This document shows, piece after piece, positions 1 to 32,744 of a stretch of DNA of 50,720 bases. The DNA lies in the IMG/VR virus record IMGVR_UViG_3300023179_000002, positions 1 to 50,720 of that record, one strand, 5' to 3'. The notes below the pieces were generated by a model, which was not told the origin of the DNA, did not search any database, and saw nothing but the letters and a program-made list of their open reading frames with translations. Position 1 is the first letter of the stretch. Each line of letters opens with the position of its first letter. Position numbers and translations under genes: made by a program. This stretch comes from a virus. Taxonomy: Duplodnaviria > Caudoviricetes.

Positions 1-127
1 AATGTTTCACGTGAAACATTAACCCTTAACCTTTCTGCAAAATAAATTACCCTTTATGGGTAACTATAGGTGCATGGCTTGGCTTTGTATGACTCCTGAT
101 CCATTGGATCATGCGCCTTTGTGCAAG
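1..127. repeat. Terminal direct repeat, copy 1 (circularisation overlap)
   Basis: 1-127 is identical to 50594-50720; 127 nt is a common assembler k-mer length. Confidence 0.95.
3..18. promoter_or_regulatory. parS: parS site 1, perfect chromosomal consensus
   Basis: TGTTTCACGTGAAACA; palindrome extends over 1-20. Confidence 0.85.
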
Positions 128-130
128 GAT

Positions 131-146
131 CGTTGCACGTGAAACA
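131..146. promoter_or_regulatory. parS: parS site 2
   Basis: CGTTGCACGTGAAACA, 1 mismatch to TGTTNCACGTGAAACA. Confidence 0.75.
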
Positions 147-202
147 TGGTGCAGGGTGCATGGTGACTACGTAAAGGGGAGAGGCATAAGGCGCAAGGGG
201 AT

Positions 203-218
203 TGTTTCCCGTGAAACA
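203..218. promoter_or_regulatory. parS: parS site 3
   Basis: TGTTTCCCGTGAAACA, 1 mismatch to consensus. Confidence 0.75.
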
Positions 219-861: not shown

Positions 862-881
862 ATAGAAAGCGAGAGAAAACC

Positions 882-1073
882 ATGGCAAATCAAATCCAAG
901 TTCAAATCCAAGTTCAAATCAAAACAGTCTATGGCAAAGAGGCGATCTATCCTGTATGCGAGCAGGGCAAGCTTTTTGCGGCCTTAACAGGAACCAAAAC
1001 ACTTTCTCGCCAAAACTTGGAAATGATCAAGGCGCTTGGCTTTGAGATCGTTGTGCAGCAAGTGACCCTATAA
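882..1073 (+). CDS. Conserved small phage early protein
   Basis: VYG..IYPVC..A.L.GTKTL pattern typical of phage hypotheticals; purine-rich leader. Confidence 0.75.
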   Translation: MANQIQVQIQVQIKTVYGKEAIYPVCEQGKLFAALTGTKTLSRQNLEMIKALGFEIVVQQVTL

Positions 1074-1103
1074 CCAATTAACCTAACCACGAAAGGAAAG
1101 ACC

Positions 1104-1808
1104 ATGAATCCCGAATCAATCCACCAAGGTTACTATTTTCAATATCCCGCGAAAATACTTCACGTTGAAAAACTGCCCGTGAATCCCGATTCACGTTTCA
1201 CGTTTGAAGGGTATAATTTTCTGGAATTTGTGGGCAAATCCCTGTACATGGATTCCAAAACAGGCAAGCCCAAATTTCAAACGGTTAACAATCATGCCAG
1301 CTATTGGATAGAAGCGGCTCCGGGTGTTTTTGTAAGCCTTGGCGGTTTTTATGACAGAGAAAGGTTTAATGTGGCCATGGCGTTGCATATTCAAGCGGGC
1401 CGCATAGAGTCTTTAATTAAAGAATTTTTGGCGAATGCCGCCGATATACCCGCTTATGAGGCGCGGCAAGCGGCAGCTATAGCCGAGGAAAAAGCGGCGC
1501 AAGCGGCCGAAGATGCACGCCGGGAGGCCGAAGCGGCGAGAAGGGAAGAGGCCCGAAGGCAAGCCAGAGAGGACCAACTAACCAAGGCCCAAGAGTTATT
1601 CAAGGCAGGGGACCGCATACAATGGGAGGAATTCGAGGCGCTTTGCGAGAGGCACGGAATAAAAATAAATATGCGCACAAAGGGAAGCGGCCGCGCCTCG
1701 GTGAAGCTCATCGGCCATGAATCAATGAATGTTTTGACGGGGAGAAGGCCAGATATGGCCCTACGATATGCCAAGGAATTGTTTCAGAAATTGAACCCCA
1801 CAACCTAA
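1104..1808 (+). CDS. Hypothetical early protein with coiled-coil segment
   Basis: 234 aa ORF, AAGGA RBS, E/A/R-rich helix. Confidence 0.75.
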   Translation: MNPESIHQGYYFQYPAKILHVEKLPVNPDSRFTFEGYNFLEFVGKSLYMDSKTGKPKFQTVNNHASYWIEAAPGVFVSLGGFYDRERFNVAMALHIQAGRIESLIKEFLANAADIPAYEARQAAAIAEEKAAQAAEDARREAEAARREEARRQAREDQLTKAQELFKAGDRIQWEEFEALCERHGIKINMRTKGSGRASVKLIGHESMNVLTGRRPDMALRYAKELFQKLNPTT

Positions 1809-1828
1809 CCAAGAAAGGACAAAAACCA

Positions 1829-2128
1829 ATGACAACACACACTAAAGGGCCATGGCATATCGGGCTTAAACCTGGGCCGATTATCTATGATCAGCATGGC
1901 GCACAGATTGTGAGTATGCGCGAGGCGTTATTGCCCGATGACGAAAACATGGTAAACGCCAAGCTAATCGCCGCCGCGCCCGAATTATTAGCCGCGCTGG
2001 TGGAGTTTGAAAATTTGGCTCTCGGGATATATCAGTCCCAGAATTTAGATGAACCGTATGAGGCATCTCTATCAGTCCTTATCGATAAGGCACAAGCAAC
2101 TATAGCACGTGCGCGGGGGCAGTCATGA
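1829..2128 (+). CDS. Conserved phage protein (HTxGPW...NAxLIAAAPEL family)
   Basis: Motifs HTKGPW and NAKLIAAAPELLAAL. Confidence 0.8.
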   Translation: MTTHTKGPWHIGLKPGPIIYDQHGAQIVSMREALLPDDENMVNAKLIAAAPELLAALVEFENLALGIYQSQNLDEPYEASLSVLIDKAQATIARARGQS

Positions 2129-2334
2129 CTTATAAAACGACTGAAAAACAAATTGCGGGCCGCCGCTGGCAATTCATTCGGCGCAAGGGGCACACGGGGG
2201 CCGACTTCACGTGGGCGCGGCTGTATGATGACCGGCGTGGGGTGTGGATAGCCTTATCGGACCCTTGGCCAGGGGCCGATTATCCCTTGCGCGAGCTGAT
2301 ACGGCAAGCCGCGCAGGTATTCCCCGCCGAATAA
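2125..2334 (+). CDS. Hypothetical protein
   Basis: ATGA overlap with the upstream gene. Confidence 0.6.
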   Translation: MTYKTTEKQIAGRRWQFIRRKGHTGADFTWARLYDDRRGVWIALSDPWPGADYPLRELIRQAAQVFPAE

Positions 2335-2371
2335 CCCCTAACCCTAACGAACCACGAAAGCGAGAAAGCCA

Positions 2372-3040
2372 ATGGAACAAACAATTATCAAAAACCGGTA
2401 CACTGGCGAAGTGATGTTAGAAGGCCAGCCACTAGAGTCGATTCTTGGAATGCACAAGCCCTGGCTGTTAGGCAAAGAAGGCGGCAGACGCGCATGTTTG
2501 CGCGGTGCAAACCTCATCGGTGCAAACCTCAGCGGTGCAAGCCTCGGCAGTGCAAACCTCAGCCATGCAAACCTCAGCGGTGCCGACCTGCGCGGTGCCG
2601 ACCTCAGCCATGCAAACCTCAGCGAGGCCGACCTCAGCCATGCAAACCTCAGCGAGGCCGACCTCAGCCATGCAAACCTCAGCGATGCAAGCCTCATCGG
2701 TGCAAACCTCAGCGGTGCCGACCTGCGCGGTGCCGACCTCAGCGAGGCCGACTTGTGCGGTGCGAACATGAACGGTATTAGCTTGGAGGATACCATAGGA
2801 AACAAATTACAGGTAAAAAGCCTGCAACTTGAAAGATACTCAATAGCCTACACAGCTTTAGATTTGCAGATTGGTTGTAAGGTCTACGATATCTCTCAAT
2901 GGTGGGCATTTGATGATATCACAATAGAACAAATGGACAAAGGCGCGCTGGATTGGTGGAAAAAATGGAAACCAATTTTGCAACAAATTATTGAGGCATC
3001 TCCAGCGACACCGACAGGGCGGGGAAAGGCAGGTAAGTGA
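2372..3040 (+). CDS. Pentapeptide-repeat protein
   Basis: About 19 A(N/D/S)Lxx repeats (about 2490-2790) followed by an LQIGC...W C-terminal domain. Confidence 0.9.
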   Translation: MEQTIIKNRYTGEVMLEGQPLESILGMHKPWLLGKEGGRRACLRGANLIGANLSGASLGSANLSHANLSGADLRGADLSHANLSEADLSHANLSEADLSHANLSDASLIGANLSGADLRGADLSEADLCGANMNGISLEDTIGNKLQVKSLQLERYSIAYTALDLQIGCKVYDISQWWAFDDITIEQMDKGALDWWKKWKPILQQIIEASPATPTGRGKAGK

Positions 3041-3081
3041 TGACACAAGCCAAATCGTGGAAAGATAACTATCGCGTAAAT

Positions 3082-3097
3082 TTAACTACTGATTAAC
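3082..3097. promoter_or_regulatory. CtrA-binding box
   Basis: TTAA-CTACTGA-TTAAC; near-copy TTAA-CTACTGA-CTAAC at 3501-3516. Confidence 0.55.
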
Positions 3098-3124
3098 CCC
3101 TAGCAAAGAAAGCGAGAAAGCACC

Positions 3125-3511
3125 ATGTACCCCTTAACCAAAATCAATAAAAAAACAAACGCCTTGCATGTTTGGATACACCCGAAAGACAGGCCGGATT
3201 TGCGCCGCGCCTTGGCCGAATATGGCCTAGCTACGGCATGGGCCGATTTGTGGGATCGTACTCAAGCAAGTGGCGGGATAGCACCAATGCCGCCCGAATT
3301 ATGCGGCCTGACCGATGATCCTTATTGCTTGGCCGAATATGCAAGCCCCCTAGAGGACGGCAATGGGGTGCACGTGACGGGCCGATTGTGGCACTATCCC
3401 AACTATATGCTGGAATGCGCAATGGAAAAGCTGTTGCGGGGCCGAACCGTAGTCTTCGATTGCTGGCATGTGACGCCGGACGAAGGCGAAACGCGCAAAT
3501 TTAACTACTGA
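3125..3511 (+). CDS. Hypothetical protein
   Basis: 128 aa ORF with the shared GAAAGCGAGAAAG leader. Confidence 0.7.
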   Translation: MYPLTKINKKTNALHVWIHPKDRPDLRRALAEYGLATAWADLWDRTQASGGIAPMPPELCGLTDDPYCLAEYASPLEDGNGVHVTGRLWHYPNYMLECAMEKLLRGRTVVFDCWHVTPDEGETRKFNY

Positions 3512-3537
3512 CTAACCCCAGAAAGCGAGAAAACACC

Positions 3538-3810
3538 ATGAGGATATCCAAAACAGAATATCTAGCGCGCGGCGGGGGGAAGAATGAAGCACAATATAAA
3601 ACACGATCAAAAAGCGGTCGCTGGGTGTATCACACAACAGACACGCCGTATGAGAGGGCCTTGAGGGCACAGCTGCGGGCAGCTGAGGCCCTTCAAAGTA
3701 GCGGCATTGGCTTTTATAAAGAGGTGGCAAGTTTTCTGGAAGCCGAACTAAGAGCCAGTAAACAAGGCAATGCTATGAAACACCCTAACCAGGAAAGCCC
3801 CGGACCATGA
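3538..3810 (+). CDS. Hypothetical protein
   Basis: Same leader motif; 90 aa. Confidence 0.65.
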   Translation: MRISKTEYLARGGGKNEAQYKTRSKSGRWVYHTTDTPYERALRAQLRAAEALQSSGIGFYKEVASFLEAELRASKQGNAMKHPNQESPGP

Positions 3811-4166
3811 CTCTTAGAGCACGCAGAGACCCGACCAGAATCGTGATGCTGAAGCGATTGCGGGGCCGATATGAGATATTCTTGCAGACCGAGAGTAAGG
3901 ACCGGCGCCGATATCTGTATGTCAGAGATATACGCTACGGGATCAAGGCGAGGCCGACCATATGCCGGCGCCAATACCATAAAATCTCAGTGATATACCC
4001 TGGGGGGTTTGATCCACCTAGGTATGTGACCCAAGCCCTTGAAACCCTGTTTAAACGGCCCCACGGCCGGCAAACACGGTTTGCGCGGGCCGCTATGGCG
4101 GGGCCGACCGTGGCGAACGTGCAAGCGGCCTATACACCCTTAACCAAGAAGGACCTTGGACCATGA
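3807..4166 (+). CDS. Basic hypothetical protein
   Basis: ATGA overlaps at both ends. Confidence 0.55.
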   Translation: MTLRARRDPTRIVMLKRLRGRYEIFLQTESKDRRRYLYVRDIRYGIKARPTICRRQYHKISVIYPGGFDPPRYVTQALETLFKRPHGRQTRFARAAMAGPTVANVQAAYTPLTKKDLGP

Positions 4167-4465
4167 CTCATTGCTCCCCGATCTGGCACCGAACCGGTGC
4201 CGACACTGGCTCCGGTGCCCCTGTGAAGGGCCGAGGCCGAAAGACGTGGCCCGAGATTATCCGAACGATCCGGCTTTTTCTGTATATGCTCAGCACGTTT
4301 GTGCTGGTCACGGGCATATGGGCCGGTGCCGATCGCGTGGCGACAAGCTACGCGACCTTAACCAAGGCCGTTGTCCGGCAAACTCACTGCGCCGAGCAAT
4401 GGGCCGAGGTTTTAATGCCCTTGGCGAAGCGGAGCCGATCAACCCAAACTGTAAGAAAGGACTAA
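4163..4465 (+). CDS. Hypothetical membrane protein
   Basis: AGGA RBS, one hydrophobic segment LFLYMLSTFVLVTGIWAG. Confidence 0.55.
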   Translation: MTHCSPIWHRTGADTGSGAPVKGRGRKTWPEIIRTIRLFLYMLSTFVLVTGIWAGADRVATSYATLTKAVVRQTHCAEQWAEVLMPLAKRSRSTQTVRKD

Positions 4466-4470
4466 GGACC

Positions 4471-4980
4471 ATGAAACTTTATTTTATTGACCATGCCACT
4501 GAGCAGGGCCGACGCCGACAATGGACAACGACCCTGCGCCGATTGAAACAAATCTATGCAGAGCTGGCCGACGACCAGAAAGCCGATGCCGTGGCCGAGG
4601 CCTACGAGTGCCCCCGCACGACGAAAAAAATGCAGGAGCAGTGGGCCGATTTTCTTGGTCGGTTACAGGCCGCGCCGAAGGAGATGCCCGCCGACGCCGA
4701 TCTTGCCGTGGTTCCTCAGGCGCCGGTGCCGCGCCTCCCCTATCGCGCCCTCGTGTCGGCACGTTACGATATGCGATGGACCATGGACCAATATCAATGG
4801 CCCGTGGAGTTGGTGATCACCGATAAGCAGACCGGCGCCGTTTATTCTTTCGGCAAGGATCTCGATGAAGCCCGGCGCGTGTACCAGCGATTGCAAAAAA
4901 CTTTTCGTGGCAGCCACCGAGTTTTCGAGGCCGAAGTGGCAAAAGTTTTGGAAGAGAGGAACCATGTTAACCAAAAATAG
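4471..4980 (+). CDS. Hypothetical protein (start trimmed to MKLYFID)
   Basis: AAGGA RBS before ATG 4471, in frame with ORF 4156..4980. Confidence 0.65.
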   Translation: MKLYFIDHATEQGRRRQWTTTLRRLKQIYAELADDQKADAVAEAYECPRTTKKMQEQWADFLGRLQAAPKEMPADADLAVVPQAPVPRLPYRALVSARYDMRWTMDQYQWPVELVITDKQTGAVYSFGKDLDEARRVYQRLQKTFRGSHRVFEAEVAKVLEERNHVNQK

Positions 4981-4981
4981 A

Positions 4982-5010
4982 TTGACACACACCGACCGTT
5001 GCCGTACCAT
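4982..5010 (+). promoter_or_regulatory. Sigma70 promoter upstream of the tRNA-like/CysRS unit
   Basis: TTGACA-N17-TACCAT. Confidence 0.7.
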
Positions 5011-5035
5011 CCAGCCCCAGAAAGGTAGAAAGACC

Positions 5036-5266
5036 ATGGACCATGAATCTCGCGCCGACATGCCCGACTTTAACGCATGGGCTTTCGCTATTTTTCGCCT
5101 GACATTCGGAGAAAAAGAAGACGAGCAGGTGGTGATTGACCGCCTGAAGCTGGCGCTTGCGGCAGCTTATAGCCGAGGCTTCGCGCATGCTGTGGCCGGT
5201 GCCGACCTCCCTAAAAAAGCAAAACCTCGGAAACCCCACAAGCCCAAGCCGCGGGGGAAAAAATGA
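5036..5266 (+). CDS. Hypothetical protein with basic tail
   Basis: AAAGG leader then ATG 5036. Confidence 0.6.
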   Translation: MDHESRADMPDFNAWAFAIFRLTFGEKEDEQVVIDRLKLALAAAYSRGFAHAVAGADLPKKAKPRKPHKPKPRGKK

Positions 5267-5274
5267 CAAGATAT

Positions 5275-5357
5275 GTGCATGTAGCCCAGTTGGTTGAGGC
5301 GAATCCTTGTGCGCACAGGGAGGAAAGATACAGGTTCGAGTCCTGTCATGCACACCA
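5275..5357 (+). tRNA. tRNA-like gene with aberrant anticodon arm (positional anticodon GTG, His-like)
   Basis: Acceptor GTGCATG/CATGCAC + A + CCA; D arm GCC..TGG..GGC; T arm ACAGG-TTCGAGT-CCTGT; anticodon arm non-canonical. Confidence 0.8.
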
Positions 5358-5375
5358 CAACAAAGGAGAGAACCA

Positions 5376-5591
5376 ATGACCGCAACACAATTCTTAGATT
5401 ACATTCACAAGGCGGGAAGTGTTCCCGAAAAGCTTGAAGCTGTGGCTGAATACCTGAATGATTACCCAAATACACCCGTATTTGACCTGAAGTGCATGCT
5501 CCGGGCTGCAGCGTACGCTTCTCGTAGAGGTATTAGAAAATACTACCCTAGCGCAGAGCCGTCACCCCAGTACGATGACGATGGAGCCTAG
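5376..5591 (+). CDS. Hypothetical protein
   Basis: AAGGAG RBS before ATG 5376. Confidence 0.65.
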   Translation: MTATQFLDYIHKAGSVPEKLEAVAEYLNDYPNTPVFDLKCMLRAAAYASRRGIRKYYPSAEPSPQYDDDGA

Positions 5592-5794
5592 GACATGGCG
5601 ATCTGCGATGTTTGCGCAGCACAAAACAAGTGTACGTGGCCCGAAGGGCATGTATGCACGTGGTGGTGCGGCCACTGTGACCATTGCGGTTTGGACGATC
5701 AATCAGTTTGCGACGAGAGCGATTGGCAGTGGCCCAAGGGATCTCGGAACTGGGGACAAAGGGAGTTTTAACCGTGAACACACAGGAGGCTGAA

Positions 5795-6193
5795 ATGCCC
5801 TTGGACATTGCGCCCTTAGACCCGAACGATCCGGCAGTCATCGACGAAGTGATGTTTGATGTTGTTCAGCCATTGACCATTGATCCTGATACATTGAAAG
5901 AGCTCATGGATATGGGTATCGTAGATACAGGTTTCTCGCTTCAGGACAAAGAAGCGTGTCTTAGCTTGCGTTTTTGTGCCCTAGAGTGGGAATACGTCTC
6001 CGCGGAACGTTCCCCGATCCCTGAGCATGGAGGGGCGGTCATCTGGCCTGGTTACAGTGAAATTGTAACCTATGAGATACAGCCCTCTCTTGATACACTG
6101 GAGAGGCTGGGCTTTAAGATAACGGCAAAAGGCCTTGGGTCCATTGAGAATTACAAAGAAACATTAGAGGCGGAGGCTGCGTATGGAATCTAA
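5795..6193 (+). CDS. Acidic hypothetical protein
   Basis: GGAGG RBS before ATG 5795. Confidence 0.65.
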   Translation: MPLDIAPLDPNDPAVIDEVMFDVVQPLTIDPDTLKELMDMGIVDTGFSLQDKEACLSLRFCALEWEYVSAERSPIPEHGGAVIWPGYSEIVTYEIQPSLDTLERLGFKITAKGLGSIENYKETLEAEAAYGI

Positions 6194-7577
6194 AGATATT
6201 TTTCTCTACAACACGCTGACGCGGCAAAAAGAAACATTCAAACCTGTGGATGATAAAAACGTGCGCATGTATGTGTGCGGTCCCACCGTGTATGATCGCG
6301 CCCACCTGGGCAATGCGCGGCCGGTGGTGGTGTTTGATACGCTGTTCAGGTTGCTGCGCCACAAATATGGCCACAACCATGTCACCTATGCCCGCAACAT
6401 TACCGATGTTGATGATAAAATTATGGCCCGCGCCCATGAAACGGGTGAGAGCATTGAAAGCCTGACCACACGCACCACGCAGGCCTATCATGATGATATG
6501 GGTGCGCTGAATGCACTGCCCCCCACCATCGAGCCGCGCGCCACAGGCCACATTGCCGAGATGATTGCGCTGAATGAGGTATTGATTGCAAAAGGTCATG
6601 CTTATGTGGCCGAAGGTCATGTGCTTTTTCATGTGCCCAGCATGAAAAATTATGGCCAGCTTTCACGCCGCAGCCGCGATGAGCTGATTGCCGGCGCGCG
6701 GGTGGATGTGGCACCCTATAAAAAAGATGCGGCCGATTTTGTGTTGTGGAAACCCAGCGCGCCCGATCAACCAGGCTGGGAAAGTCCGTGGGGTCGTGGC
6801 CGGCCTGGCTGGCACATTGAATGTTCGGCCATGGCGCGCAAACATTTGGGCACGACGTTTGATATTCATGGCGGCGGGCTCGATCTTATTTTTCCCCATC
6901 ATGAAAATGAAATTGCACAAAGCTGCTGCGCGCATGATGGCGCGCCACTGGCCCGTGTGTGGATGCATAACGGATTTCTGACCATCAATCATGATAAAAT
7001 GAGTAAATCGCTGGGCAATTTTTTTACGGTGAATGATCTGTTGCAGAAACATCATGGAGAAGTGATACGCCTGGCGCTTTTGTCGGCGCATTATCGCCAA
7101 CCGCTGGATTTTTCTGAAGAAAAGCTGCAAGAATGCAAGGTGACGCTGGAAAAATGGTACAGCGCTCTTGGCAACTGCACAGAGATTGAAAACGAGTATG
7201 CTGATTTAAGCCAGCGCCACCAACTGCAGGTTTTTGGCCCCGCTGAAGAAGCGCTGTGTGATGATTTGAACACGCCACAAGCCATGACAGAATTAAACCA
7301 ACTTGCTGCAAAAATATTTAAGTTGCCTCTTGGCTCTGATGAACGAAAAAAATTGTCTCACACCCTCAGATACTCAGCTCAATTCCTTGGGCTGCTGTAT
7401 TGGACGATTGACAGACCTGTACTTGATGCCCTGCTTCGAGAGTATGCTCAGGCGCGATACAACAAAGATTTTGCCAAGGTTGACCAATTACGCGCTGAGA
7501 TTCAAAAGCTGGGCGTGCAAATTGAGGATGGCCCCAAGGGCACATATTCACTTCGGCCATTTTGGAGATCGTTTTGA
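6183..7577 (+). CDS. cysS: Cysteinyl-tRNA synthetase
   Basis: MYVCGPTVY, HLGN (HIGH), RNITDVDDK, DFVLWK, GRPGWHIECSAM, DIHGGG.DL.FPHHENE, KMSKS, DDLNTP and C-terminal anticodon-binding domain. Confidence 0.97.
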   Translation: MESKDIFLYNTLTRQKETFKPVDDKNVRMYVCGPTVYDRAHLGNARPVVVFDTLFRLLRHKYGHNHVTYARNITDVDDKIMARAHETGESIESLTTRTTQAYHDDMGALNALPPTIEPRATGHIAEMIALNEVLIAKGHAYVAEGHVLFHVPSMKNYGQLSRRSRDELIAGARVDVAPYKKDAADFVLWKPSAPDQPGWESPWGRGRPGWHIECSAMARKHLGTTFDIHGGGLDLIFPHHENEIAQSCCAHDGAPLARVWMHNGFLTINHDKMSKSLGNFFTVNDLLQKHHGEVIRLALLSAHYRQPLDFSEEKLQECKVTLEKWYSALGNCTEIENEYADLSQRHQLQVFGPAEEALCDDLNTPQAMTELNQLAAKIFKLPLGSDERKKLSHTLRYSAQFLGLLYWTIDRPVLDALLREYAQARYNKDFAKVDQLRAEIQKLGVQIEDGPKGTYSLRPFWRSF

Positions 7578-7852
7578 CTGACATCGCCGCCGCAATGCTC
7601 GCCGTGTCGCTGATGACTGGCCTTCCCGTCCCGCCTCCGCCCATCGTGGTTGAGACGCGCGAGGAAATGCCTTGCGCTGGCGAAGCAAAAAGGCCAGTCG
7701 GCTTGTACTGCATGGGCCATGTTTGGTTGCGCGATGACGCAACACAAGCTGTCGCTGTGCATGAGATGGTTCACCATTACCAACATCACTACCACGCCGA
7801 GATGTTGGAATTACATGCGTATGAACTTGAACGGAAATGGAGCAGACAATGA
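7574..7852 (+). CDS. Small zincin-like (HExxH) protein
   Basis: VHEMVHH plus downstream ExxAY; hydrophobic N-terminus; TTG start overlapping the cysS stop. Confidence 0.6.
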   Translation: MTDIAAAMLAVSLMTGLPVPPPPIVVETREEMPCAGEAKRPVGLYCMGHVWLRDDATQAVAVHEMVHHYQHHYHAEMLELHAYELERKWSRQ

Positions 7853-8064
7853 AAATCAAGGAAATAATCTCACAGCACCGTCGCGACTTTACTGCCGTGT
7901 ACGAATGCGAACACTGCGGGCGCACAGAACGTGGTAGTGGCTACGATGATGACAACTTCCACAGAAATGTTATACCTGCGAAAGTTTGCAGGTCATGCGG
8001 CAAAACAGCGGCAGATAACTATAGGCCGATGGCAACGAAATACGCAGCGCATGAGGTAGTGTGA
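7849..8064 (+). CDS. Small zinc-ribbon protein
   Basis: RRDF..YECEHCG ... CRSCG. Confidence 0.75.
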   Translation: MKIKEIISQHRRDFTAVYECEHCGRTERGSGYDDDNFHRNVIPAKVCRSCGKTAADNYRPMATKYAAHEVV

Positions 8065-8420
8065 TGACCGACACACTTGCAAAAATAGCCGAGCTGCAAA
8101 AGCAGATTGATGAGTTGAAAGCGAAGGCTGAGGTAGAGAAAGAGTGGCCGCAAAAAGGAGATACTGTTTATAGTTTGCACTCCGACGGTTATATTAATGT
8201 CATTGTTTGCGGATATGATGTTAAAGTGCTGGTAGAACGAACTGAACGCGGTGAAATATTCTTGACATTGGATGAAGCCAAGAAGCACGACCGCTGGAAA
8301 ATACTAGACAAAAAGCTGCGCGATTTGGGGGCATCTGAGGAGAATTATTTTCCTGTTTTACGGCAGATTATTGAAGCATACCCAGCAACACCAACAGGGC
8401 ATGAAAAGGAAGGTGAGTGA
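8061..8420 (+). CDS. Hypothetical protein
   Basis: 119 aa; C-terminus resembles that of the pentapeptide protein. Confidence 0.7.
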   Translation: MMTDTLAKIAELQKQIDELKAKAEVEKEWPQKGDTVYSLHSDGYINVIVCGYDVKVLVERTERGEIFLTLDEAKKHDRWKILDKKLRDLGASEENYFPVLRQIIEAYPATPTGHEKEGE

Positions 8421-8761
8421 TGACACACGACTACAGGCACACACTCACCCCTTGGGTGTTAGAAGATAGACGTGAGCGCGGCGAAGGATTTTCAATTAAG
8501 TCACCTTCGGTACATTACTCATCTTGCCTTGTTGCTCACTACATTGGCGAAAGTGACGCGAAGTTTATTGTGCGAGCCTGCAACACATATGATGCTTTGG
8601 TTCGGATATATGAAGCTGCGAAAAAAGTAATGGACTTACTCGAAAAGCACGGCTCAGACGCAGTGCCCCATTTAATGGATACCGACGAAAATTGCGGGCA
8701 GAAACTTCGTGAGTTTATTGCGGAATATACAAAGATTATCGAACCAAAAGCAGGTGAGTGA
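8417..8761 (+). CDS. Conserved phage protein
   Basis: TPW...DAKFIVRACN motif. Confidence 0.7.
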   Translation: MMTHDYRHTLTPWVLEDRRERGEGFSIKSPSVHYSSCLVAHYIGESDAKFIVRACNTYDALVRIYEAAKKVMDLLEKHGSDAVPHLMDTDENCGQKLREFIAEYTKIIEPKAGE

Positions 8762-8949
8762 TGACCAAGCAAGAAAAACACCATATTGGTGATGGGGTTT
8801 ATGTTCATCTAAACCAGTTTAACCAGATTGTGCTTGAGAGCAGTTTTGGCTTTGGTGGGGAGGCACAAAACGTCATTTATTTAGAACCTGACGTAATGCT
8901 TGAACTTATTAAGTTTTCATTACAAGCAAAGGCACGAAACAATGACTGA
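8758..8949 (+). CDS. Conserved small phage protein
   Basis: IGDGVYV...IYLEP motif. Confidence 0.7.
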   Translation: MMTKQEKHHIGDGVYVHLNQFNQIVLESSFGFGGEAQNVIYLEPDVMLELIKFSLQAKARNND

Positions 8950-9319
8950 CAAACCCGAACTTAAACCCTGCCCGTTTTGTGGTGGAACTGATTTGGAATT
9001 CGATTCCAATATATGTTGGGAGTGCAATCAGGAGAAACTTGTACAAGCCACTATAGAGTGTAAAAAATGCGACTGTACGATGTACGCTGACTACGATGAC
9101 GCACTAATAAAAAAATGGAACACGCGGCATGATGAAGCAGTTTTAGATGAGATTGAACACAGGTTTTCTTGCGTGCTTGAAAAGGCCACTGGAGGCATGA
9201 TGAGCAAGACGAATTACGATAAGCAAACTATGTACACACAAATAGATGAATTTTTAGACCGAGAACGCCAAGAAGCTTATCAAGAAGGCTACGATTGGGC
9301 AAAAAAGAAGGAAAGATGA
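8942..9319 (+). CDS. Lar-family restriction alleviation-like zinc protein
   Basis: ELKPCPFCGG ... CxxC ... WNTR. Confidence 0.75.
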   Translation: MTDKPELKPCPFCGGTDLEFDSNICWECNQEKLVQATIECKKCDCTMYADYDDALIKKWNTRHDEAVLDEIEHRFSCVLEKATGGMMSKTNYDKQTMYTQIDEFLDRERQEAYQEGYDWAKKKER

Positions 9320-9582
9320 AACACGACCACAGAGATGCGCTGGAAAATGCTGCCACAAATAATATAGAGTTTTATTCCGATGGAACGCCAACTTTTAGAG
9401 GGTTAGATTGAAAGGCTCTCGAACGATGAACGACGACAGACACTCTTGCATAGGCGATTGCACGCCAAAAGAAAGCGCCGAGCAGTACGCGGACCACCAA
9501 GATTGCTGTGTGCGTTTGCTGCAAAAGCTTGGATTTCATGAATTGGCTGAACAAAGAACAAAATGCAGGAAGGGAGGGACCG

Positions 9583-9819
9583 ATGTCCGCAACGAACCAA
9601 CTGACTCTTGATTCTTTCCTTAAGTTTGTGGGAAAAGAGCCCACTGAAGCTTTTTACATGCTGGCAACCAGGGCGTTTTCTGCGTGGGAAGAGGAGTCCG
9701 TTACGGGGGAAGATGTGTGCCAATTTGCTCACGCACTTTTTGCCTTTACACTCGCCACTGTTTTAAGTAATATAGACGACAGAGAGGTAGAAAGAAGCCC
9801 CCATGAATCAATCCATTAA
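9583..9819 (+). CDS. Hypothetical protein
   Basis: GGAGG RBS before MSATNQ. Confidence 0.55.
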   Translation: MSATNQLTLDSFLKFVGKEPTEAFYMLATRAFSAWEEESVTGEDVCQFAHALFAFTLATVLSNIDDREVERSPHESIH

Positions 9820-10162
9820 ACTATCCGAGGCTTCGCTACGATTAAACCCTAGGGTTTTTGTCACCCAAGGCACTGACCTTGATTTATCCAAAGCGGCCCG
9901 TTTTGGCGAGCTTGAGGTTATCATGCCCACTCGCACAAATATTGTAGCGGCCTCCAACCCCACCTTCTGGCGTATTTTTGATGGCCTCAAAGATTTTAAT
10001 GGCGACACCGACTACCTTCTTCCGCTGGGGGATCCTGTTGTTATCGGACTTACTTTTTTATCGCTGGCGGAAAAGAACTTAGAGACCCTGCGAATACTTA
10101 AATGGGACCGACACCTCAACGACTACTATGTCGTTAAACTTAACCCGCGGAGGAAACCATGA
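9803..10162 (+). CDS. Conserved phage protein, small Rossmann-like alpha/beta fold
   Basis: VFVTQ..A.RFGEL...DYLLPLGDP...LKWDR..Y. Confidence 0.75.
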   Translation: MNQSIKLSEASLRLNPRVFVTQGTDLDLSKAARFGELEVIMPTRTNIVAASNPTFWRIFDGLKDFNGDTDYLLPLGDPVVIGLTFLSLAEKNLETLRILKWDRHLNDYYVVKLNPRRKP

Positions 10163-10764
10163 ATCTTGGACCCTTAACCTTGGATAACCTATTTGAGGAC
10201 AGTCAAACCATGGTTCCGATCAAGGGGACTGCTCCTTCCTTGGCGGAACTTCAAGCCGTTGGGAAACAAATACAGGACATCGATAATTTAATAATGTCCT
10301 TGGAGGAACGGTTAAAGATTGCGAAAGAGCAACGAGAACACCTCTCAGAGCAACGGCTACCGGATCTTATGGCAGCGTTGCAGCTTAAAAGTTTTACCTT
10401 GGAGGACGGAACAGTGTTCGAGACCGCCCAGATGGTGAGTGCCTCCATTAAGGAAGATAAAAGAGAGGATGCTCACGCATGGCTAAGAGCGCGTGGTCTG
10501 GGGGACATTATTAAAAACGAAGTTATTACCACTTTTGGGGCAGGGGAGGACGAAGACGCCCAGCGCCTTATGGAAACTGTCCGAGACCTCTCTTCAGAAG
10601 GTAAGATAAATTATGGTAAACTCGATCGAGTGGAGCGGGTTCACCCACAAACCCTTAAATCAATGGTCAAAGACCGTTTGGCGAAAGGGCAAGATTTGGA
10701 TGTCGAACTTCTCGGTATTTTCATTAAGGATGTTGCCGTAATGAAGATGGCCAAGAAAAGGTAA
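10159..10764 (+). CDS. Conserved phage replication-module protein
   Basis: LPDLM...WLR..GLGDIIKNEV...VHPQTLK pattern; GGAGG RBS. Confidence 0.8.
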   Translation: MNLGPLTLDNLFEDSQTMVPIKGTAPSLAELQAVGKQIQDIDNLIMSLEERLKIAKEQREHLSEQRLPDLMAALQLKSFTLEDGTVFETAQMVSASIKEDKREDAHAWLRARGLGDIIKNEVITTFGAGEDEDAQRLMETVRDLSSEGKINYGKLDRVERVHPQTLKSMVKDRLAKGQDLDVELLGIFIKDVAVMKMAKKR

Positions 10765-10829
10765 CGTCGACCTGCGACAGACGTGACAGCTTGGATAGAC
10801 AAGCATAACCAAGAAAGTGAGAACGAAAC

Positions 10830-11654
10830 ATGACCAAACAAGCAAAATCCAAAGAACTGGCTTCAGTAAAGTCAACTGAGCTTGCTCTTGTCGATACGGA
10901 TCTTATCAGCATGGTCGCTGAAGATTCAGGGATGGGTTTGCAGAATCTTAGCAGCAATGACATGCAGACGCCTATTCTGCGGTTGCTGCAAGCCAATTCT
11001 CCTATCTGCAAGAAATCGGACCCTGCTTATGTTCAAGGGGCCACCGAAGGGGACTTCTATAACAACGTAACGGGAAAAGTGTACAGCGGAGAGGAGGGGA
11101 TTAATGTCATCCCTTGCCACTTCGAGAAAGTGTATATCGAGTGGAAAGCAGGACGGAATGGTCTGGCGGGGATTCACCCTTCGGACACACCTAAGCTTGC
11201 AGAGCTACGCACCGTAAAAAATCAGGAAGGTCGAGAAGTACAAGTGCTTCCTAACGGGAACGAGTTTGTTGAAACAAACCAGCACTATATTCTTATCCTG
11301 AACGAAGACGGTACGTTTGAACCTGCGGTGCTCGGTATGTCGTCCAGTGCTCTTTCAGCATCGCGTCGGTGGAACACGTTGATGAAACAAGTCATCCTGA
11401 AAAAGGACGGGCGCAGTTTTATCGCTCCCAGCTTTTATACCGTATACAAAGTGCAGTCCAAGACTTCGGTCAAAGACAAGTATAGCTGGGCCTCGTTTAA
11501 TATCAGCCCTGTGGGTCCTGTCTCATCGGTCGATGTCTACAACGCCGCAAAAAATTTCCATCGTAGCATTGCTGAGGGACGGGTTAAAGTGAAACATGAG
11601 GTTCCTGACGAGGCTCCTGCGTCGTCAGTCAATGTATCTGACCTTGACGGATAA
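10830..11654 (+). CDS. Putative single-stranded DNA-binding protein
   Basis: P.LRLLQ..SP and YIEW motifs, acidic C-terminal tail, position next to the primase. Confidence 0.65.
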   Translation: MTKQAKSKELASVKSTELALVDTDLISMVAEDSGMGLQNLSSNDMQTPILRLLQANSPICKKSDPAYVQGATEGDFYNNVTGKVYSGEEGINVIPCHFEKVYIEWKAGRNGLAGIHPSDTPKLAELRTVKNQEGREVQVLPNGNEFVETNQHYILILNEDGTFEPAVLGMSSSALSASRRWNTLMKQVILKKDGRSFIAPSFYTVYKVQSKTSVKDKYSWASFNISPVGPVSSVDVYNAAKNFHRSIAEGRVKVKHEVPDEAPASSVNVSDLDG

Positions 11655-11657
11655 TGG

Positions 11658-14159
11658 ATGGGCACCCCTATGGCCTTTGATCCTCGAACTGCGCCCGAAG
11701 GAAAAAGGGTATACTGTCACGAGTGTCTCATGTGGATTAGTGACCACATGCGGAAAGACCTCTATGCAGCGTATCGAACCAACAGTGCAGGAAAAGGACT
11801 TTATCTCCCCGTGGAGGAAAAAGTCACTAACAGACTTCTTTCCGAACATATCGCGGGGGAAAAACCCATAGGACAATATCTTTTGCTGCCACCTGAACGC
11901 AATACAGTTCGGGTGGCAGTGATCGATATTGACGATAAAAAAAGACAAAAGGATTGGAAAGACCTGTGCGGGATTGCGGCGCATATTTGCGACACGCTAG
12001 GGTCTGCCTATGCTCCATGGGTATGCCGCTCTGGCTCTGGTCACGGTATCCATATATGGTTTTTCTGGCCCTCTCCGCAGCGGGCAGTTTATGTGCGACA
12101 AGCGTTACGCCCTGTTGTGGACAAGATGCGGGTTAAATACGATGTAAGCATTGACTTGTTTCCCGCGCAGGATGAAGCAGCCCAGCTTGGGAACCTTGTC
12201 GCCGTACCTTTCTCTCGCAAGTCGCGGTATATAACTAATTTGGGCACCGGCGATGTCCATAGTGACCTTTCGACATGGGAAGGCCCTCTGCCACGTTACT
12301 CGGCAGATCTGTATGAACAACAGATCATGGACCTTGATTCCTTGATCGAGGACGCTGGAAAAGGCCTACCGTCAGAGAATGATGTTGCCTACGGCCCTGT
12401 GGACATACCCACAATTAAAGAGGCTCTCTCGTTTGTTTCGAACGATGACTACGCTGTCTGGATACGGGTAGGACTAGCTTTGAAAACAGCAGCGGGTAGC
12501 GGGCAGCTTACAGATGAGGAAGGGAAAGAGATTTGGGATTCATGGTCGAAGAACAGCCCTAAGTACGATGCTTGGAGAATTAACTACGACTGGAACAGGT
12601 TTAATGAGAGACGCAGTGGCGTAACGCTGGGCACCGTCTGGCACTATGCCTATCGCGGCGGATGGAAGGGCCCTGCACCGTCTGCCGTGGCTAATGACAC
12701 ACCTTCGGAGGCGCCTTCTCCCCCTGTGATGTCAGCAGCACAGGGGCAAAACAAAAACCCGACATCTTCCGGTGGGTCTGAAAATATACAAGAAGTGAAC
12801 CGAGATCATTTTGTGGCACGGGAAGGAAGTAAGTATTTTATATTCAAGGAAGTTTTGGACGATGATTTTAAACGGCAGTCCGTTGTGAGGTTGACCAAGC
12901 AAGATTTTCTAATTGAGTTAGCGAATAAAATGGAGCTGTCGTATACAAAGACCGGACGACTAAGCAGTGAACCCTTGGCAGAGGCGTGGTTAAAAAGCCC
13001 CCACCGGCGGCAGTACGAGAGTATTGTTTTCAACCCTGAGGGAGCTCCGGAAAACACCTACAACCTGTGGCGTGGATTTACGGTTAAGCCTTCCTCCGAA
13101 GGCTCTTGCGAATTGTTTAAAGAGCATGTGCTCAACAACATCTGCCGAGGGGATGAGAACGTCTATAACTACGTCATGAATTGGTGTGCGTTTACGATAC
13201 AGTTCCCTGGCACTCCGATTGGAACTGCTCTTGTTCTACGAGGTGGACAAGGCACAGGCAAAGGAACCTTAGCTAAGGTTATTGGTAATTTGTTCGGCCA
13301 GCACTTTATTCACGCCTCTAATAAAAACACCGTTTTTGGCCGATTTAATGCGTGCCTCCACGACTGCATCCTTCTATTTCTGGACGAAGCGTATTGGGCG
13401 GGGGCGAAGGCAGAACAATCAACTCTTAAAGCTTTAATCACCGAGCCTACGCTTCAAATTGAAGGTAAGAATAGAGACACGATCACGACCAAAAATATGG
13501 TGCACACCATCATCGCCACCAATAATGATTGGTCGGTTCCCACTGACTTGGACGATCGTCGTTTCCTAACGCTTCATGTCGCAGACACACGGGCCAGAGA
13601 CTACACCTACTTTAACGCACTATACGATCAGTTGAAACGAGGCGGCTACTCGCGGTTGTTGTACGAACTGCAACAGCGTCAAGTTTCGGAGTTTCAGCCA
13701 GCGGCCATTCCAGGTACACCAGAATTGTGGGTACAAAAAAGAAACTCACTATCAAGTATCGGAGAATGGTGGCTGGAGCGATTGCAGCAAGGGACACCTG
13801 GTTCTAGCATTAAAGATTGGGATGTTGCTGTTCCTGTTACGGCTATGTACCACGATTATGTAGACTACTGCGAGCTGGCAAAAATTCGTTCGACCGGAAC
13901 AAGTACTTGGTTTATGCGGAAGCTTTCAGAGATGATCCAACACAGGGAGATCGCTGACCGACGAACTTTAACAGAGGGGATTGTTACCCGAAAAGGTGTG
14001 CTTGAGCCTGGCACACGCCAAGTGTTTTGGCGACTGCCTTCATTAAAAGAATGCCGTGAGATTTTTGCGTTACAGGCCAAGGCAGAGATCATCTGGGACA
14101 GTATCCCTGAAACTGTCGCCCAAAAGAAAAGGAGAGAGTCCGATGAAATACTTATCTAA
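11658..14159 (+). CDS. Primase-helicase (AEP-like + PriCT-2 + SF3/D5-like helicase)
   Basis: IDID and SGSGHGIHIW primase motifs; DDY..W..VG.AL..W..WS PriCT-2; GGQGTGKG Walker A, FLDE Walker B. Confidence 0.9.
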   Translation: MGTPMAFDPRTAPEGKRVYCHECLMWISDHMRKDLYAAYRTNSAGKGLYLPVEEKVTNRLLSEHIAGEKPIGQYLLLPPERNTVRVAVIDIDDKKRQKDWKDLCGIAAHICDTLGSAYAPWVCRSGSGHGIHIWFFWPSPQRAVYVRQALRPVVDKMRVKYDVSIDLFPAQDEAAQLGNLVAVPFSRKSRYITNLGTGDVHSDLSTWEGPLPRYSADLYEQQIMDLDSLIEDAGKGLPSENDVAYGPVDIPTIKEALSFVSNDDYAVWIRVGLALKTAAGSGQLTDEEGKEIWDSWSKNSPKYDAWRINYDWNRFNERRSGVTLGTVWHYAYRGGWKGPAPSAVANDTPSEAPSPPVMSAAQGQNKNPTSSGGSENIQEVNRDHFVAREGSKYFIFKEVLDDDFKRQSVVRLTKQDFLIELANKMELSYTKTGRLSSEPLAEAWLKSPHRRQYESIVFNPEGAPENTYNLWRGFTVKPSSEGSCELFKEHVLNNICRGDENVYNYVMNWCAFTIQFPGTPIGTALVLRGGQGTGKGTLAKVIGNLFGQHFIHASNKNTVFGRFNACLHDCILLFLDEAYWAGAKAEQSTLKALITEPTLQIEGKNRDTITTKNMVHTIIATNNDWSVPTDLDDRRFLTLHVADTRARDYTYFNALYDQLKRGGYSRLLYELQQRQVSEFQPAAIPGTPELWVQKRNSLSSIGEWWLERLQQGTPGSSIKDWDVAVPVTAMYHDYVDYCELAKIRSTGTSTWFMRKLSEMIQHREIADRRTLTEGIVTRKGVLEPGTRQVFWRLPSLKECREIFALQAKAEIIWDSIPETVAQKKRRESDEILI

Positions 14160-14258
14160 CCTGTGCCGTTATTTCAGTAAGTTGTTTATGAAAAAGGAAG
14201 AGACACTTTATGTGCGGATGTTAAAATTTCATATTGCGAACACAACGCGGATATACCG

Positions 14259-14528
14259 ATGAACGATACGGAACGAACCGCGGCAAAAATCCTGCATGAC
14301 CTGGAAGAAAGATCCGCACTCGGCCCTGCTCAAAAATCCATACTTATACAAAACCACATCTCGGAACGTGTTGAAGAGGCGCGGGATCAGATTTGTTTTA
14401 TGCTGTATTCTCGCCTTCAGGTCGAAAAAGTATATCGGCTTGAAGCCAAAGTCCCTGCACCTGAATCCCTATATTTTTCTCGTGCCCTAGAAGAGCTTAT
14501 CGAGTTTATAAAAAGTTCTCCCGTTTAA
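14259..14528 (+). CDS. Hypothetical protein
   Basis: 89 aa ORF within the operon. Confidence 0.5.
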   Translation: MNDTERTAAKILHDLEERSALGPAQKSILIQNHISERVEEARDQICFMLYSRLQVEKVYRLEAKVPAPESLYFSRALEELIEFIKSSPV

Positions 14529-14560
14529 CTTTCTTTTAACCATAGCGCGTGTATATATCC
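14525..14560 (+). promoter_or_regulatory. CtrA box with downstream -10-like element
   Basis: TTAA-CTTTCTT-TTAAC (14525-14540), then TATATA, ahead of the polymerase gene block. Confidence 0.6.
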
Positions 14561-14613
14561 AACGGCTCGCAGAATAGTTCTGCAAGCATAGAAAGCTAGA
14601 AAGGAAGGTTGGT

Positions 14614-14727
14614 ATGTATCATGATGCTGACAATGACGATGGACACCACAACGTGGGCCTTGAAGTTGGCTCTCTCGTTTTGGTCTTTTTAATTACGTTC
14701 TGTTTCCTCTTGAAGATATACGGTTAG
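14614..14727 (+). CDS. 37 aa single-TM protein
   Basis: AAGGAAGG RBS; LVLVFLITFCFLL. Confidence 0.5.
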   Translation: MYHDADNDDGHHNVGLEVGSLVLVFLITFCFLLKIYG

Positions 14728-14735
14728 GGGGAATC

Positions 14736-14951
14736 ATGGGCTACTACATTGAGCACGGCGCAGCGACAGGTGATCCGAGTGGATTATTTATCGGCATCAT
14801 TGCTGCGGCCATTATTATCCCCATCATTAGTGGGATGAGTAACTTCATCGTCTCTAATGAAAGTCCACAGGACAGATATGTAAAATCTATCCGCAAGGAG
14901 CTTCAACGCCGCCGTAGACGGGAAGCAGACAAGTGGAGGGACTATGAATAG
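14736..14951 (+). CDS. Small single-TM protein
   Basis: LFIGIIAAAIIIPII followed by a basic tail. Confidence 0.6.
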   Translation: MGYYIEHGAATGDPSGLFIGIIAAAIIIPIISGMSNFIVSNESPQDRYVKSIRKELQRRRRREADKWRDYE

Positions 14952-15033
14952 CCACGAGGAAATTTCCCTTATCGGGGCGGTTTTACTTTTGCTGACATGG
15001 CTCTTTTCCTTGGGGGTAGGCAATGATACATGA
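14944..15033 (+). CDS. 29 aa single-TM protein
   Basis: GGAGG RBS; LIGAVLLLLTWLFSL. Confidence 0.45.
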   Translation: MNSHEEISLIGAVLLLLTWLFSLGVGNDT

Positions 15034-15214
15034 TCGATACCAACTTATGTGGTGTGCAGGTAGATTTTATCTATTTGACCGAACCAAGGGGAAACTTGTT
15101 GACGATTCTTGGTCCACACGAGAGCAAGCAGAAGCATACCTAAAGCTAGAACTGTCTGAGCAAAAGTTCGAAGACACAGTGTTTGCGCTTACTGCCTGTG
15201 CTGCTTGGAGATGA
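15023..15214 (+). CDS. Hypothetical protein
   Basis: 63 aa ORF within the operon. Confidence 0.5.
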   Translation: MIHDRYQLMWCAGRFYLFDRTKGKLVDDSWSTREQAEAYLKLELSEQKFEDTVFALTACAAWR

Positions 15215-15322
15215 GCAGAGTGTGGTCTCCCCAGAGACCACACTTCTCCTGACATTTACCATTTTTCTGTATACAGATATGACAATCTCGTGTATAGCTT
15301 TTCCCAGAGAGCTAGAGAACGC

Positions 15323-16390: not shown

Positions 16391-16605
16391 TGATGATCGA
16401 GCACGACTTCGACCGTGAGTGGTACCAAGAGGTCATTGACCTGTGTATGCGTTATGACGACATTTTCTCCGCATGGGAGCTTGACTTCATTAGTAGTCAA
16501 CATGAACGTCTCGAACTAGATTCTCAGTATACTCCGTCCGAGAAACAAAGAGACATCTACACGCGGCTGCATACCAAACTTCTCACGCACGGATTTACAC
16601 AATGA
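16390..16605 (+). CDS. Conserved small phage protein
   Basis: SAWELDFISS...SEKQ. Confidence 0.65.
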   Translation: MMIEHDFDREWYQEVIDLCMRYDDIFSAWELDFISSQHERLELDSQYTPSEKQRDIYTRLHTKLLTHGFTQ

Positions 16606-18560: not shown

Positions 18561-18561
18561 C

Positions 18562-18960
18562 ATGGATCGGTTAGAACTTAAAGCTTACGACACGTTGAAG
18601 GGGATATACCCTTCTCCTCGCACAGATTGGCAACGGATCGAAGGCTGGGCTACAACAGGAGCTCCAGACACGAATGCTTGCCACAAAGGCGTGGAAGCAT
18701 GGTTTGAATTTAAGTATATTGACGCCTCGGTGCAGGGTCAGGCTCTTGTAAAAGCCAAGTTTCGTCCCGCGCAACTTGCGTGGATTACACGCCGCGTCAA
18801 ATGCAGGGGACGTGTATACATTGTGTTACAATTCCGTGACGGGATGCTTATTGTTCCAGGGTCAAGGGTCAAGGATTTATCGGAAGGGGTGCGGGTTCCT
18901 ATGCTTAAAGAGTGGGCGATTGCACCTGCCCGTATCTTTGAAAATTTGGTTGCAAATTAA
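18562..18960 (+). CDS. VRR-NUC/PD-(D/E)xK nuclease (resolvase-like)
   Basis: RIE..TGAPD...WFEFK...RPAQ.AW; GGAGG RBS. Confidence 0.8.
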   Translation: MDRLELKAYDTLKGIYPSPRTDWQRIEGWATTGAPDTNACHKGVEAWFEFKYIDASVQGQALVKAKFRPAQLAWITRRVKCRGRVYIVLQFRDGMLIVPGSRVKDLSEGVRVPMLKEWAIAPARIFENLVAN

Positions 18961-19004
18961 GATGAAGTACGATACGTTGCCTGTAGACCGCTAGAGAGAA
19001 ACGA

Positions 19005-27884: not shown

Positions 27885-27889
27885 AATGA

Positions 27890-28336: not shown

Positions 28337-28346
28337 AGAAGCCTCC

Positions 28347-32715: not shown

Positions 32716-32744
32716 GAGAGTTTTCTCCCTGTTCCCCTGTGCGT

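Follow-up and report, generated by a model that had tools for sequence, protein, structure and literature searches.

The window analyzed here is a whole stretch of 50,720 nt from a tailed phage (IMG/VR record IMGVR_UViG_3300023179_000002), and it carries, within its first 218 nt, a cluster of three parS centromere sites of the kind found on bacterial chromosomes. All three match the chromosomal-type consensus, a 16-bp palindrome (TGTTNCACGTGAAACA), at 0, 1 or 2 mismatches. They are orphan sites, carried by a virus and not linked to a parAB operon. The three 16-mers are probably working loading sites for host ParB. By analogy with known systems, we give a little better than an even chance to the reading that chromosomal ParB of the host loads at these sites, and that the phage circle would be handled like an origin region, positioned and inherited while lysis is delayed.

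A search of the 50,720 nt for the 16-mer, with up to three mismatches allowed, gave the following matches.

Positions 3-18, no strand: parS site 1, TGTTTCACGTGAAACA, perfect 16-mer (0 mismatches)
Positions 131-146, no strand: parS site 2, CGTTGCACGTGAAACA, 2 mismatches, both in the left half; right half-site intact
Positions 203-218, no strand: parS site 3, TGTTTCCCGTGAAACA, 1 mismatch, at position 7; right half-site intact
Positions 50594-50720, no strand: assembly overlap identical to 1-127, with a duplicate of site 1 at 50596-50611

Site 1 is the core of a 20-nt palindrome (1-20). The further perfect copy at 50596-50611 is site 1 again and not a fourth site, because it lies within the 127-nt overlap; apart from these four matches, none was found anywhere in the window. 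Four matches, corresponding to three distinct sites, compare with 0.27 expected (standard deviation 0.53), none of 100 dinucleotide shuffles reached four, and the cluster is non-random. The three sites span 216 nt. Sites 2 and 3 have in common a 38-nt unit with 76% identity (repeat family D10), which suggests that a local duplication lies behind them. The original prediction had named three sites at these positions, with no comparable match elsewhere, and both statements were confirmed by the mismatch-tolerant scan and the shuffles.

The DNA belongs to a genuine tailed phage. The IMG/VR record is classed as having direct terminal repeats (DTRs), with a completeness of 100%, and since 1-127 is identical to 50594-50720, the genome as assembled is a circle of 50,593 nt, a closure that rests on the 127-nt overlap. 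Among the structural and lysis genes identified with PHROGs and Pfam were those for the large terminase, portal, scaffold, major head protein, head closure protein Hc3 and adaptor, together with ejection proteins, tail spike, fibres, amidase and an Rz-like spanin. The replication genes identified in the same way encode an AEP primase-helicase, PolA, an SNF2 helicase and proteins like gp33 and gp34 of Pam3. The region of the sites was also contained in one lake-water and one freshwater run, which came from separate studies. Contigs from these runs, X1 (depth 278) and X2, span 1-441 and 510/522-1500 without a single difference and continue past base 1, by 169 nt in X1 and by 430 nt in X2; the TA simple repeat (442-509) lay outside this comparison, in which repeats were skipped. 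X1 may be the source sample, and X2 is independent. The sites are flanked by AT-rich, phage-type non-coding DNA with no parAB locus. Thus, the misjoining of host DNA that the original prediction had named as a risk left no sign in either assembly over the parts of 1-1500 that were compared.

To look for partition and integration genes, we searched the whole record in six frames with hidden Markov models (HMMs) at E of 1 or less. No matches were obtained to ParB_N (PF02195) or HTH_ParB (PF17762), to the ParA-type families AAA_31 (PF13614) and CbiA (PF01656), or to Phage_integrase (PF00589, tyrosine type) and Resolvase (PF00239, serine type); control genomes were positive in every one of these searches. 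Likewise, no partition, repressor, integrase or excision family (Pfam or PHROGs) appeared among the 60 of 68 chosen open reading frames (ORFs) that were scanned against at least one library, the remaining eight all being short. The lack of a recognisable ParA, ParB or integrase, first noticed by reading the translations, is therefore upheld at the level of HMMs. A P-loop protein of 366 amino acids (aa; 15290-16390) was considered as a ParA and rejected, as it is thymidylate-kinase-like and its motif, GxxGxGKT, is not of the ParA type.

Orphan parS sites recur in other phages that lack ParB. The perfect 16-mer was present in at least 119 IMG/VR contigs, compared with 2 for the reversed palindrome of the same composition, an excess of at least 60-fold. 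Among the matches listed, 34 of 119 loci had two or more sites at up to two mismatches. We then searched for ParB_N in a set drawn from the listed 119, consisting of every multi-site locus (34) and 16 loci from long contigs, with one of these 50 left out. ParB_N was found in only 4 of the 49 parS-bearing records searched (2 of the 19 that were at least 90% complete). Of five small multi-site records, three have a gene for protein-primed PolB and are therefore of phi29 or tectivirus type. G019, G022 and G032 (L069, L075 and L104) are complete contigs of 11.7-15.9 kb with inverted terminal repeats, a protein-primed PolB and two or three perfect parS sites; in G032, one site is 132 nt from one end and the other about 147 nt from the opposite end.

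The first 30 nt of the window matched 530 cultured-phage records in BLAST, an upper figure, as the matches are of 16-20 nt at E up to 10 and some are partial. The matches were mainly to phages of Listeria, Clostridium, Microbacterium, Bacillus, Enterococcus, Arthrobacter, Gordonia and Pseudomonas and to microviruses, and phi29-like phages were also among them. In 'bajarodino' microviruses of about 6 kb (PQ006097, PQ006135 and others), the parS-bearing 30-mer matched at 10-12 places, which correspond to roughly 5-6 sites because palindromes are counted on both strands; Clostridium phage CPQ1 (MW057920; 18.5 kb, Clostridium perfringens) had 13 such BLAST places. Vibrio phage phi 3 (KP280063, L300) and phiPsa374 (KJ409772, L301) are linear phages with parS inside their terminal repeats: each repeat of phi 3 contains two sites, placed between the early genes A1 and A2 and including the perfect one, and each DTR of phiPsa374 contains one. 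In T5-type phages, DNA of the A1/A2 region enters the cell first. The position of parS in the terminal repeats of phi 3 hints at a role right after injection. ParB_N was absent from phi 3 and phiPsa374, as well as from the roseophages DSS3P8 and RpAliso.

No close relative of the phage was found in IMG/VR: the ORF at 1104-1808 and the portal gave 0 matches each, and PolA gave 1, at 35%. A more distant genome, G001, shares 5 of 68 window proteins, namely PolA (40% aa identity), SNF2 (44%), gp33 (38%), gp34 (32%) and one at 27%. In G001, a pair of perfect sites separated by 147 nt lies between divergent genes, just upstream of a promoter-like TTGACT...CATAAT, and the 20-nt palindrome of the window is present there too. 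Among whole records of the wider PolA clade, perfect sites were present in G053 (one) and G056 (three). In G056 (L215/L216, a low-GC contig), two perfect sites fall in a single 301-aa ORF (C1:12373 and 12829), both in the frame that reads N-V-S-R-E-T, and the third is intergenic, at 5102, between co-directional genes. ParB_N was absent from G001, G053 and G056. Thus, parS is sporadic in the PolA clade, and since it is a perfect 16-mer wherever it is present, a supply by chance is ruled out at these genome sizes. The scan of relatives that the original prediction had called for accordingly turned up perfect sites in genomes without ParB_N, in a patchy pattern and in distant relatives only.

The three sites lie in the sole long non-coding stretch of the genome, about 50422..881 according to the ORF list, which is roughly 1 kb long and AT-rich (GC content 0.367 across 1-1000). 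It separates the rightward block of early and replication genes (882-23489) from the leftward one, which holds the structural and lysis genes, in agreement with the original placement of the sites in the main non-coding region near an AT-rich tract. Besides the sites, it holds or adjoins the following features.

Positions 97-111, no strand: palindrome TGATCCATTGGATCA, between sites 1 and 2, seen in the sequence
Positions 265-279, no strand: TTAA-N7-TTAA motif, which we take to be of the CtrA-box type, 47 nt past site 3, from a motif scan
Positions ~420-520, no strand: AT-rich tract with the TA simple repeat, candidate DNA-unwinding/origin element
Positions 801-829, plus strand: putative rightward early promoter, TTGACT-17 nt-TATATC, with GANTC overlapping the -35 element, read by eye
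Positions 882-1073, plus strand: first gene of the rightward block, 63 aa, no family match (ORF list, family scans)
Positions 50119-50421, minus strand: leftward neighbour, 100 aa, with an N-terminal signal-peptide-like segment, phrog_25396 (unknown function)

The AT-rich tract at 420-520 is a possible DNA-unwinding or origin element. Within the non-coding region, TGATCCA occurs in four copies and TTAACC half-sites are clustered (6 observed versus 0.75 expected). Across the window, TTAA-N7-TTAA was found 5 times versus 1.1 expected, and none of 100 shuffles reached 5. Its copies start at 265, 3082, 14525, 23036 and 37328; the copy at 3082 is part of a repeat of 28 nt, whose second copy, at 3492, has one motif base changed, and both copies of this repeat are upstream of early genes. 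GGTTAAC, a neighbour of parS in G001, shows no excess in the window (5 observed versus 6.4 expected). A promoter scan of 1-1200 gave 4 sites versus 4.2 in shuffles, and the putative promoter at 801-829 was not among them. A scan for DnaA boxes gave matches at 2 mismatches only. The cumulative GC skew has its minimum at the parS region and its maximum near 24 kb; it was not used as origin evidence because these extremes coincide with the coding-strand switch. GANTC is about two-fold depleted window-wide, with 100 copies observed versus 178 (first-order Markov) to 197 (base composition) expected. Copies are found at 91, between sites 1 and 2, at 803, within the putative early -35 element, and at 48223 and 49376. 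For a 234-aa protein adjoining the region, an Atlas search yielded sub-threshold, HicA-like structural matches only, and no lead.

The host is probably an alphaproteobacterium. This assignment draws on a GcrA-like protein, an N6/N4 methyltransferase, the relatives of a cysteinyl-tRNA synthetase (CysRS) and the excess of TTAA-N7-TTAA, which are suggestive and no proof. The two genes related to cell-cycle control are located as follows.

Positions 48277-49281, plus strand: N6/N4 DNA methyltransferase (CcrM-type family), PF01555, E 4.2e-43
Positions 49363-49851, plus strand: GcrA-like regulator with an extra C-terminal helix-turn-helix (HTH), likely start ATG 49420, PF07750, E 2.6e-9, 38.1 bits (cut-off 26.9)

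A 99-nt segment, present in two copies with 86% identity (48204-48302 and 49357-49455), precedes both genes, which read the common DNA in different frames. Within it is TTGACA-17 nt-TATGGT, and a GANTC immediately precedes the -35 element. The CysRS (6183-7577, plus strand; Pfam E 7.6e-125) is full-length and comprises the catalytic, DALR and anticodon-binding domains. Among the best 80 of 600 loci, the closest genomic relatives, 54-58% identical, are from Alphaproteobacteria, and the first five, at 56-58%, are from Dongia, Nisaea, a Reyranellaceae metagenome-assembled genome, Magnetospirillum and Reyranella. About 0.8 kb upstream of CysRS is a tRNA-like gene of 83 nt (5275-5357, plus strand; Rfam tRNA, 42.4 bits), which could not be assigned by ARAGORN; the program reads its anticodon as four bases long, within an enlarged loop, and the gene also has a long variable region and encodes the CCA end. 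Five of the genomes with the nearest CysRS (Dongia, Nisaea, Magnetospirillum, Reyranella and Roseovarius) each contain exactly two parS sites (up to one mismatch), 0.5-3.6 kb apart, and the reversed control 16-mer is present 0 times in the same five genomes. The candidate host clade therefore uses the same centromere, with a lower copy number per chromosome than per phage genome.

From these sequence features, we infer ParB binding, a partition-like outcome and a link to the host cell cycle, the last through the GcrA-like and CcrM-like genes and the CtrA-type boxes. In the reading that we prefer, host ParB, a CTP-dependent clamp, would load at the perfect site 1 and more weakly at the degenerate sites 2 and 3, building a partition complex on the phage circle beside the AT-rich control/origin region. 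Host ParA and pole-anchoring factors would then treat the phage DNA as a chromosomal origin, so that it is positioned and segregated, and the genome would thereby be kept and passed on while lysis is delayed. Such a scheme would carry the phi29 mechanism over to a non-sporulating host, in a non-integrating, podovirus-like freshwater phage. The suggestion made at the outset that a ParB-less phage uses host ParB is supported by the universal parS, its two copies in each of the five alphaproteobacterial genomes, the lack of Par genes and the other ParB-less phages, among them a distant relative with the same replication module; the novelty attached to it did not survive. Carrier-state segregation, polar positioning and ParB titration, which had all been offered as outcomes, are not separable from sequence.

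Several observations weigh against host-ParB partition. Sites 2 and 3 deviate from the consensus, and in one of them a core position is affected. The scanned ORFs include no repressor family, and the genome gives no sign of a delayed-lysis or carrier phase. No site at up to two mismatches was found across 80 PolA-clade loci (919,645 nt); when whole records were taken for the 24 of these loci on longer contigs, only 2 had sites; and the three nearest cultured PolA relatives have no parS. Nor do phiCbK and CcrColossus. The purpose served in phi29, spore entrapment, does not apply here. Moreover, one site would suffice for partition, and the presence of three is therefore no argument for partition over titration.

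Titration is the main alternative. The sites would then act as a sink that draws host ParB off its origin as the phage replicates, stalling segregation and division while the phage matures, an explanation that we regard as unlikely. In alphaproteobacteria of the MipZ type, a division-site regulator that rides on ParB would be stripped as well, and three sites per phage copy would soon outnumber the two on the chromosome. Toro and colleagues are said to have reported in 2008 that extra parS copies perturb Caulobacter. The candidate host genomes, of 4-6 Mb, have two sites each compared with three in a replicating 50.6-kb phage; the gene content looks lytic, with no maintenance function found in the HMM and family scans; and the coupling of ParB and MipZ to Z-ring placement is established, according to a review (PMC8242196). 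However, phi29, the only studied case, uses its sites for segregation, and a decoy array would be expected to be larger than the one to three sites per genome seen in the window phage and the relatives of its replication module. Two of the three window sites are degenerate, which also counts against a sink. The sites might instead serve transcription: ParB could spread over or block divergent early promoters, making the sites a sensor of cell cycle or growth through the ParB/CTP state. Silencing by KorB-type proteins and P1 ParB works similarly, the sites lie between the leftward gene ending at 50421 and the rightward block from 882, and a CtrA-type box and GANTC-bearing promoter-like sequences adjoin them. 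The G001 sites are also intergenic between divergent genes and upstream of a promoter-like sequence. By contrast, the G056 sites are not at promoters, two being within one ORF and one between co-directional genes, and four of the five phi29 matches are inside annotated genes. Spreading of chromosomal ParB generally has little effect on transcription, and we give transcriptional control little credence.

It is also improbable that the palindromes are bound not by host ParB but by a regulator or origin-binding protein of the phage, whose operator coincides with or mimics parS. Most early genes are without a family assignment, the GcrA-like protein has an extra HTH, and the motifs repeated in the region (TTAACC, AAAAAGGTAAG and TGATCCA) imply several binders. 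Nevertheless, the 16-mer is identical to the universal chromosomal site and recurs in phages without a common protein (G001, with 5 of 68 proteins shared, phi29, DSS3P8, phi 3 and the microviruses); no ParB-type HTH was found in the window, and the 234-aa neighbour offered no usable lead. Finally, the sites could lack function altogether, as captured host origin-proximal DNA, a chance cluster of palindromes or an assembly artefact, which we find hardly credible. Patchy conservation in the wider PolA clade and the decay of two sites from the consensus would fit. The failure of all 100 shuffles to reach the observed count and the excess of at least 60-fold over the reversed control argue against chance, and the identity of the region in two independent assemblies, the contigs crossing the record start and the phage-type AT-rich flanks without parAB argue against capture or misassembly.

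The rightward early block has further features. A conserved leader of 21 nt (AGAAAGCGAGAAAGCACCATG type), whose 3' end is the start codon, precedes four early genes, at 864, 3107, 3520 and 10812. A pentapeptide-repeat protein is encoded at 2372-3040 (plus strand; Pfam E 7e-37), with a 15-nt periodic DNA repeat in 16 registers; some other pentapeptide-repeat proteins are DNA mimics. A 72-nt block closes two different genes (2976-3047 and 8356-8427), with 81% identity between the copies. In a 681-aa protein (21169-23214, plus strand), a glycosyltransferase-9 (heptosyltransferase-like) region is joined to a class I methyltransferase domain.

How virulent phages persist inside growing or resting cells without lysogeny, whether by pseudolysogeny, a carrier state or the proposed 'lytic deferment', is an open question. 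The host-type centromere of a phage that lacks ParB is a definite DNA element that can be mutated, and it could serve persistence or, equally, decoy an essential host protein. Many public phage sequences carry such an element (at least 119 IMG/VR contigs and up to 530 cultured-phage records), which takes it beyond a single case. As parS is also present in cultured pairs (DSS3P8 and RpAliso on Ruegeria pomeroyi), the idea is directly testable beyond a metagenomic genome. We suggest, tentatively and with more doubt than confidence, that orphan host-type parS represents a widespread and almost unrecognised phage strategy, and that in phages of Alphaproteobacteria it forms a cell-cycle hijack module together with CtrA boxes and GcrA/CcrM genes. 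If so, phages of Firmicutes, Actinobacteria and Proteobacteria that lack ParB would couple their DNA to the ParB-CTP clamp of the host; among them would be microviruses with several sites in 6 kb, T5-like and DTR phages whose terminal repeats contain sites, and CbK-like roseophages. The hijack module would let a virulent phage ride the segregation machinery during deferred lysis, or stop division by draining ParB, and where sites are in both terminal repeats, ParB bridging could join the genome ends after injection.

The closest known case is phi29, which has five parS sites; evidence that host Spo0J segregates its genome into the prespore is described, citing Meijer et al. 2005, in PMC2731898, and the account is repeated in PMC9437464. 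Our scan of phi29 gave 5 matches at up to three mismatches versus 0.14 expected, four of them with one mismatch, and 4 of the 5 are within annotated genes. A virulent, ParB-less phage that borrows host ParB is therefore of a known kind. The original prediction, that such sites had not been described for a phage, was thus wrong, as the five parS of phi29 are bound by host Spo0J/ParB according to the same two sources, and this precedent places the novelty below what had been claimed. Both phages are virulent, lack ParB, ParA and integrase, and carry several host-type parS sites, with 5 matches in 19.3 kb in phi29 and 3 distinct sites in 50.6 kb here. In both, motifs of a host master regulator are found in the same genome, Spo0A boxes in phi29 and predicted CtrA-type boxes here. 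A host partition protein places the phi29 genome, and we propose, by analogy, that the same may hold for the window phage. The two differ in that phi29 has a Firmicute host, a protein-primed linear genome, scattered sites mostly in genes, and forespore entrapment, whereas the window phage has a probably non-sporulating alphaproteobacterial host, sites clustered in 216 nt, and GcrA-like and CcrM-like genes of its own.

The Caulobacter-type ParABS of alphaproteobacterial chromosomes, with PopZ and MipZ, uses an identical 16-mer, its sites form a similar small cluster (five of five genomes) and an AT-rich origin-like region is near them; the window phage has no adjacent parAB and would rely wholly on proteins supplied in trans. 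P1 parABS and N15 sopABC are likewise centromere-like sites on a phage genome, with extrachromosomal inheritance as a possible further likeness, but these temperate phages have their own ParA and ParB and private, element-specific centromeres, none of which was found in the window phage. PMC9437464 proposes CtrA-dependent 'lytic deferment' for phages of Alphaproteobacteria and calls the route by which the phage chromosome survives unknown. Host cell-cycle motifs are a point in common, here the 5 copies of TTAA-N7-TTAA versus 1.1 expected, at which CtrA binding is only predicted. As differences, that paper has 0 occurrences of 'ParB', and phiCbK and CcrColossus, which belong to its focal phage group, are without parS. 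parS could supply the genome-survival route in lytic deferment.

Among cultured alphaproteobacterial phages, DSS3P8 and RpAliso (CbK-like, on Ruegeria pomeroyi DSS-3) resemble the window phage in having three parS each, perfect or with one mismatch and within about 6-8 kb near the genome ends, and in the absence of ParB_N. They differ from it as siphophages of about 146-149 kb, with gene content unrelated as far as compared. The paper on MD18 and DSS3P8 (PMC7643831) has 0 occurrences of parS or ParB. Our literature searches, which lay outside many subscription journals and supplements, found no such sites for phages of alphaproteobacterial or other non-sporulating hosts; on orphan or host parS in phages, they yielded phi29 and the use of ParB/parS as an imaging tool. 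Relative to these systems, what is probably new here is the non-sporulating, probably alphaproteobacterial host and the clustering of the sites in a control region beside cell-cycle motifs and genes.

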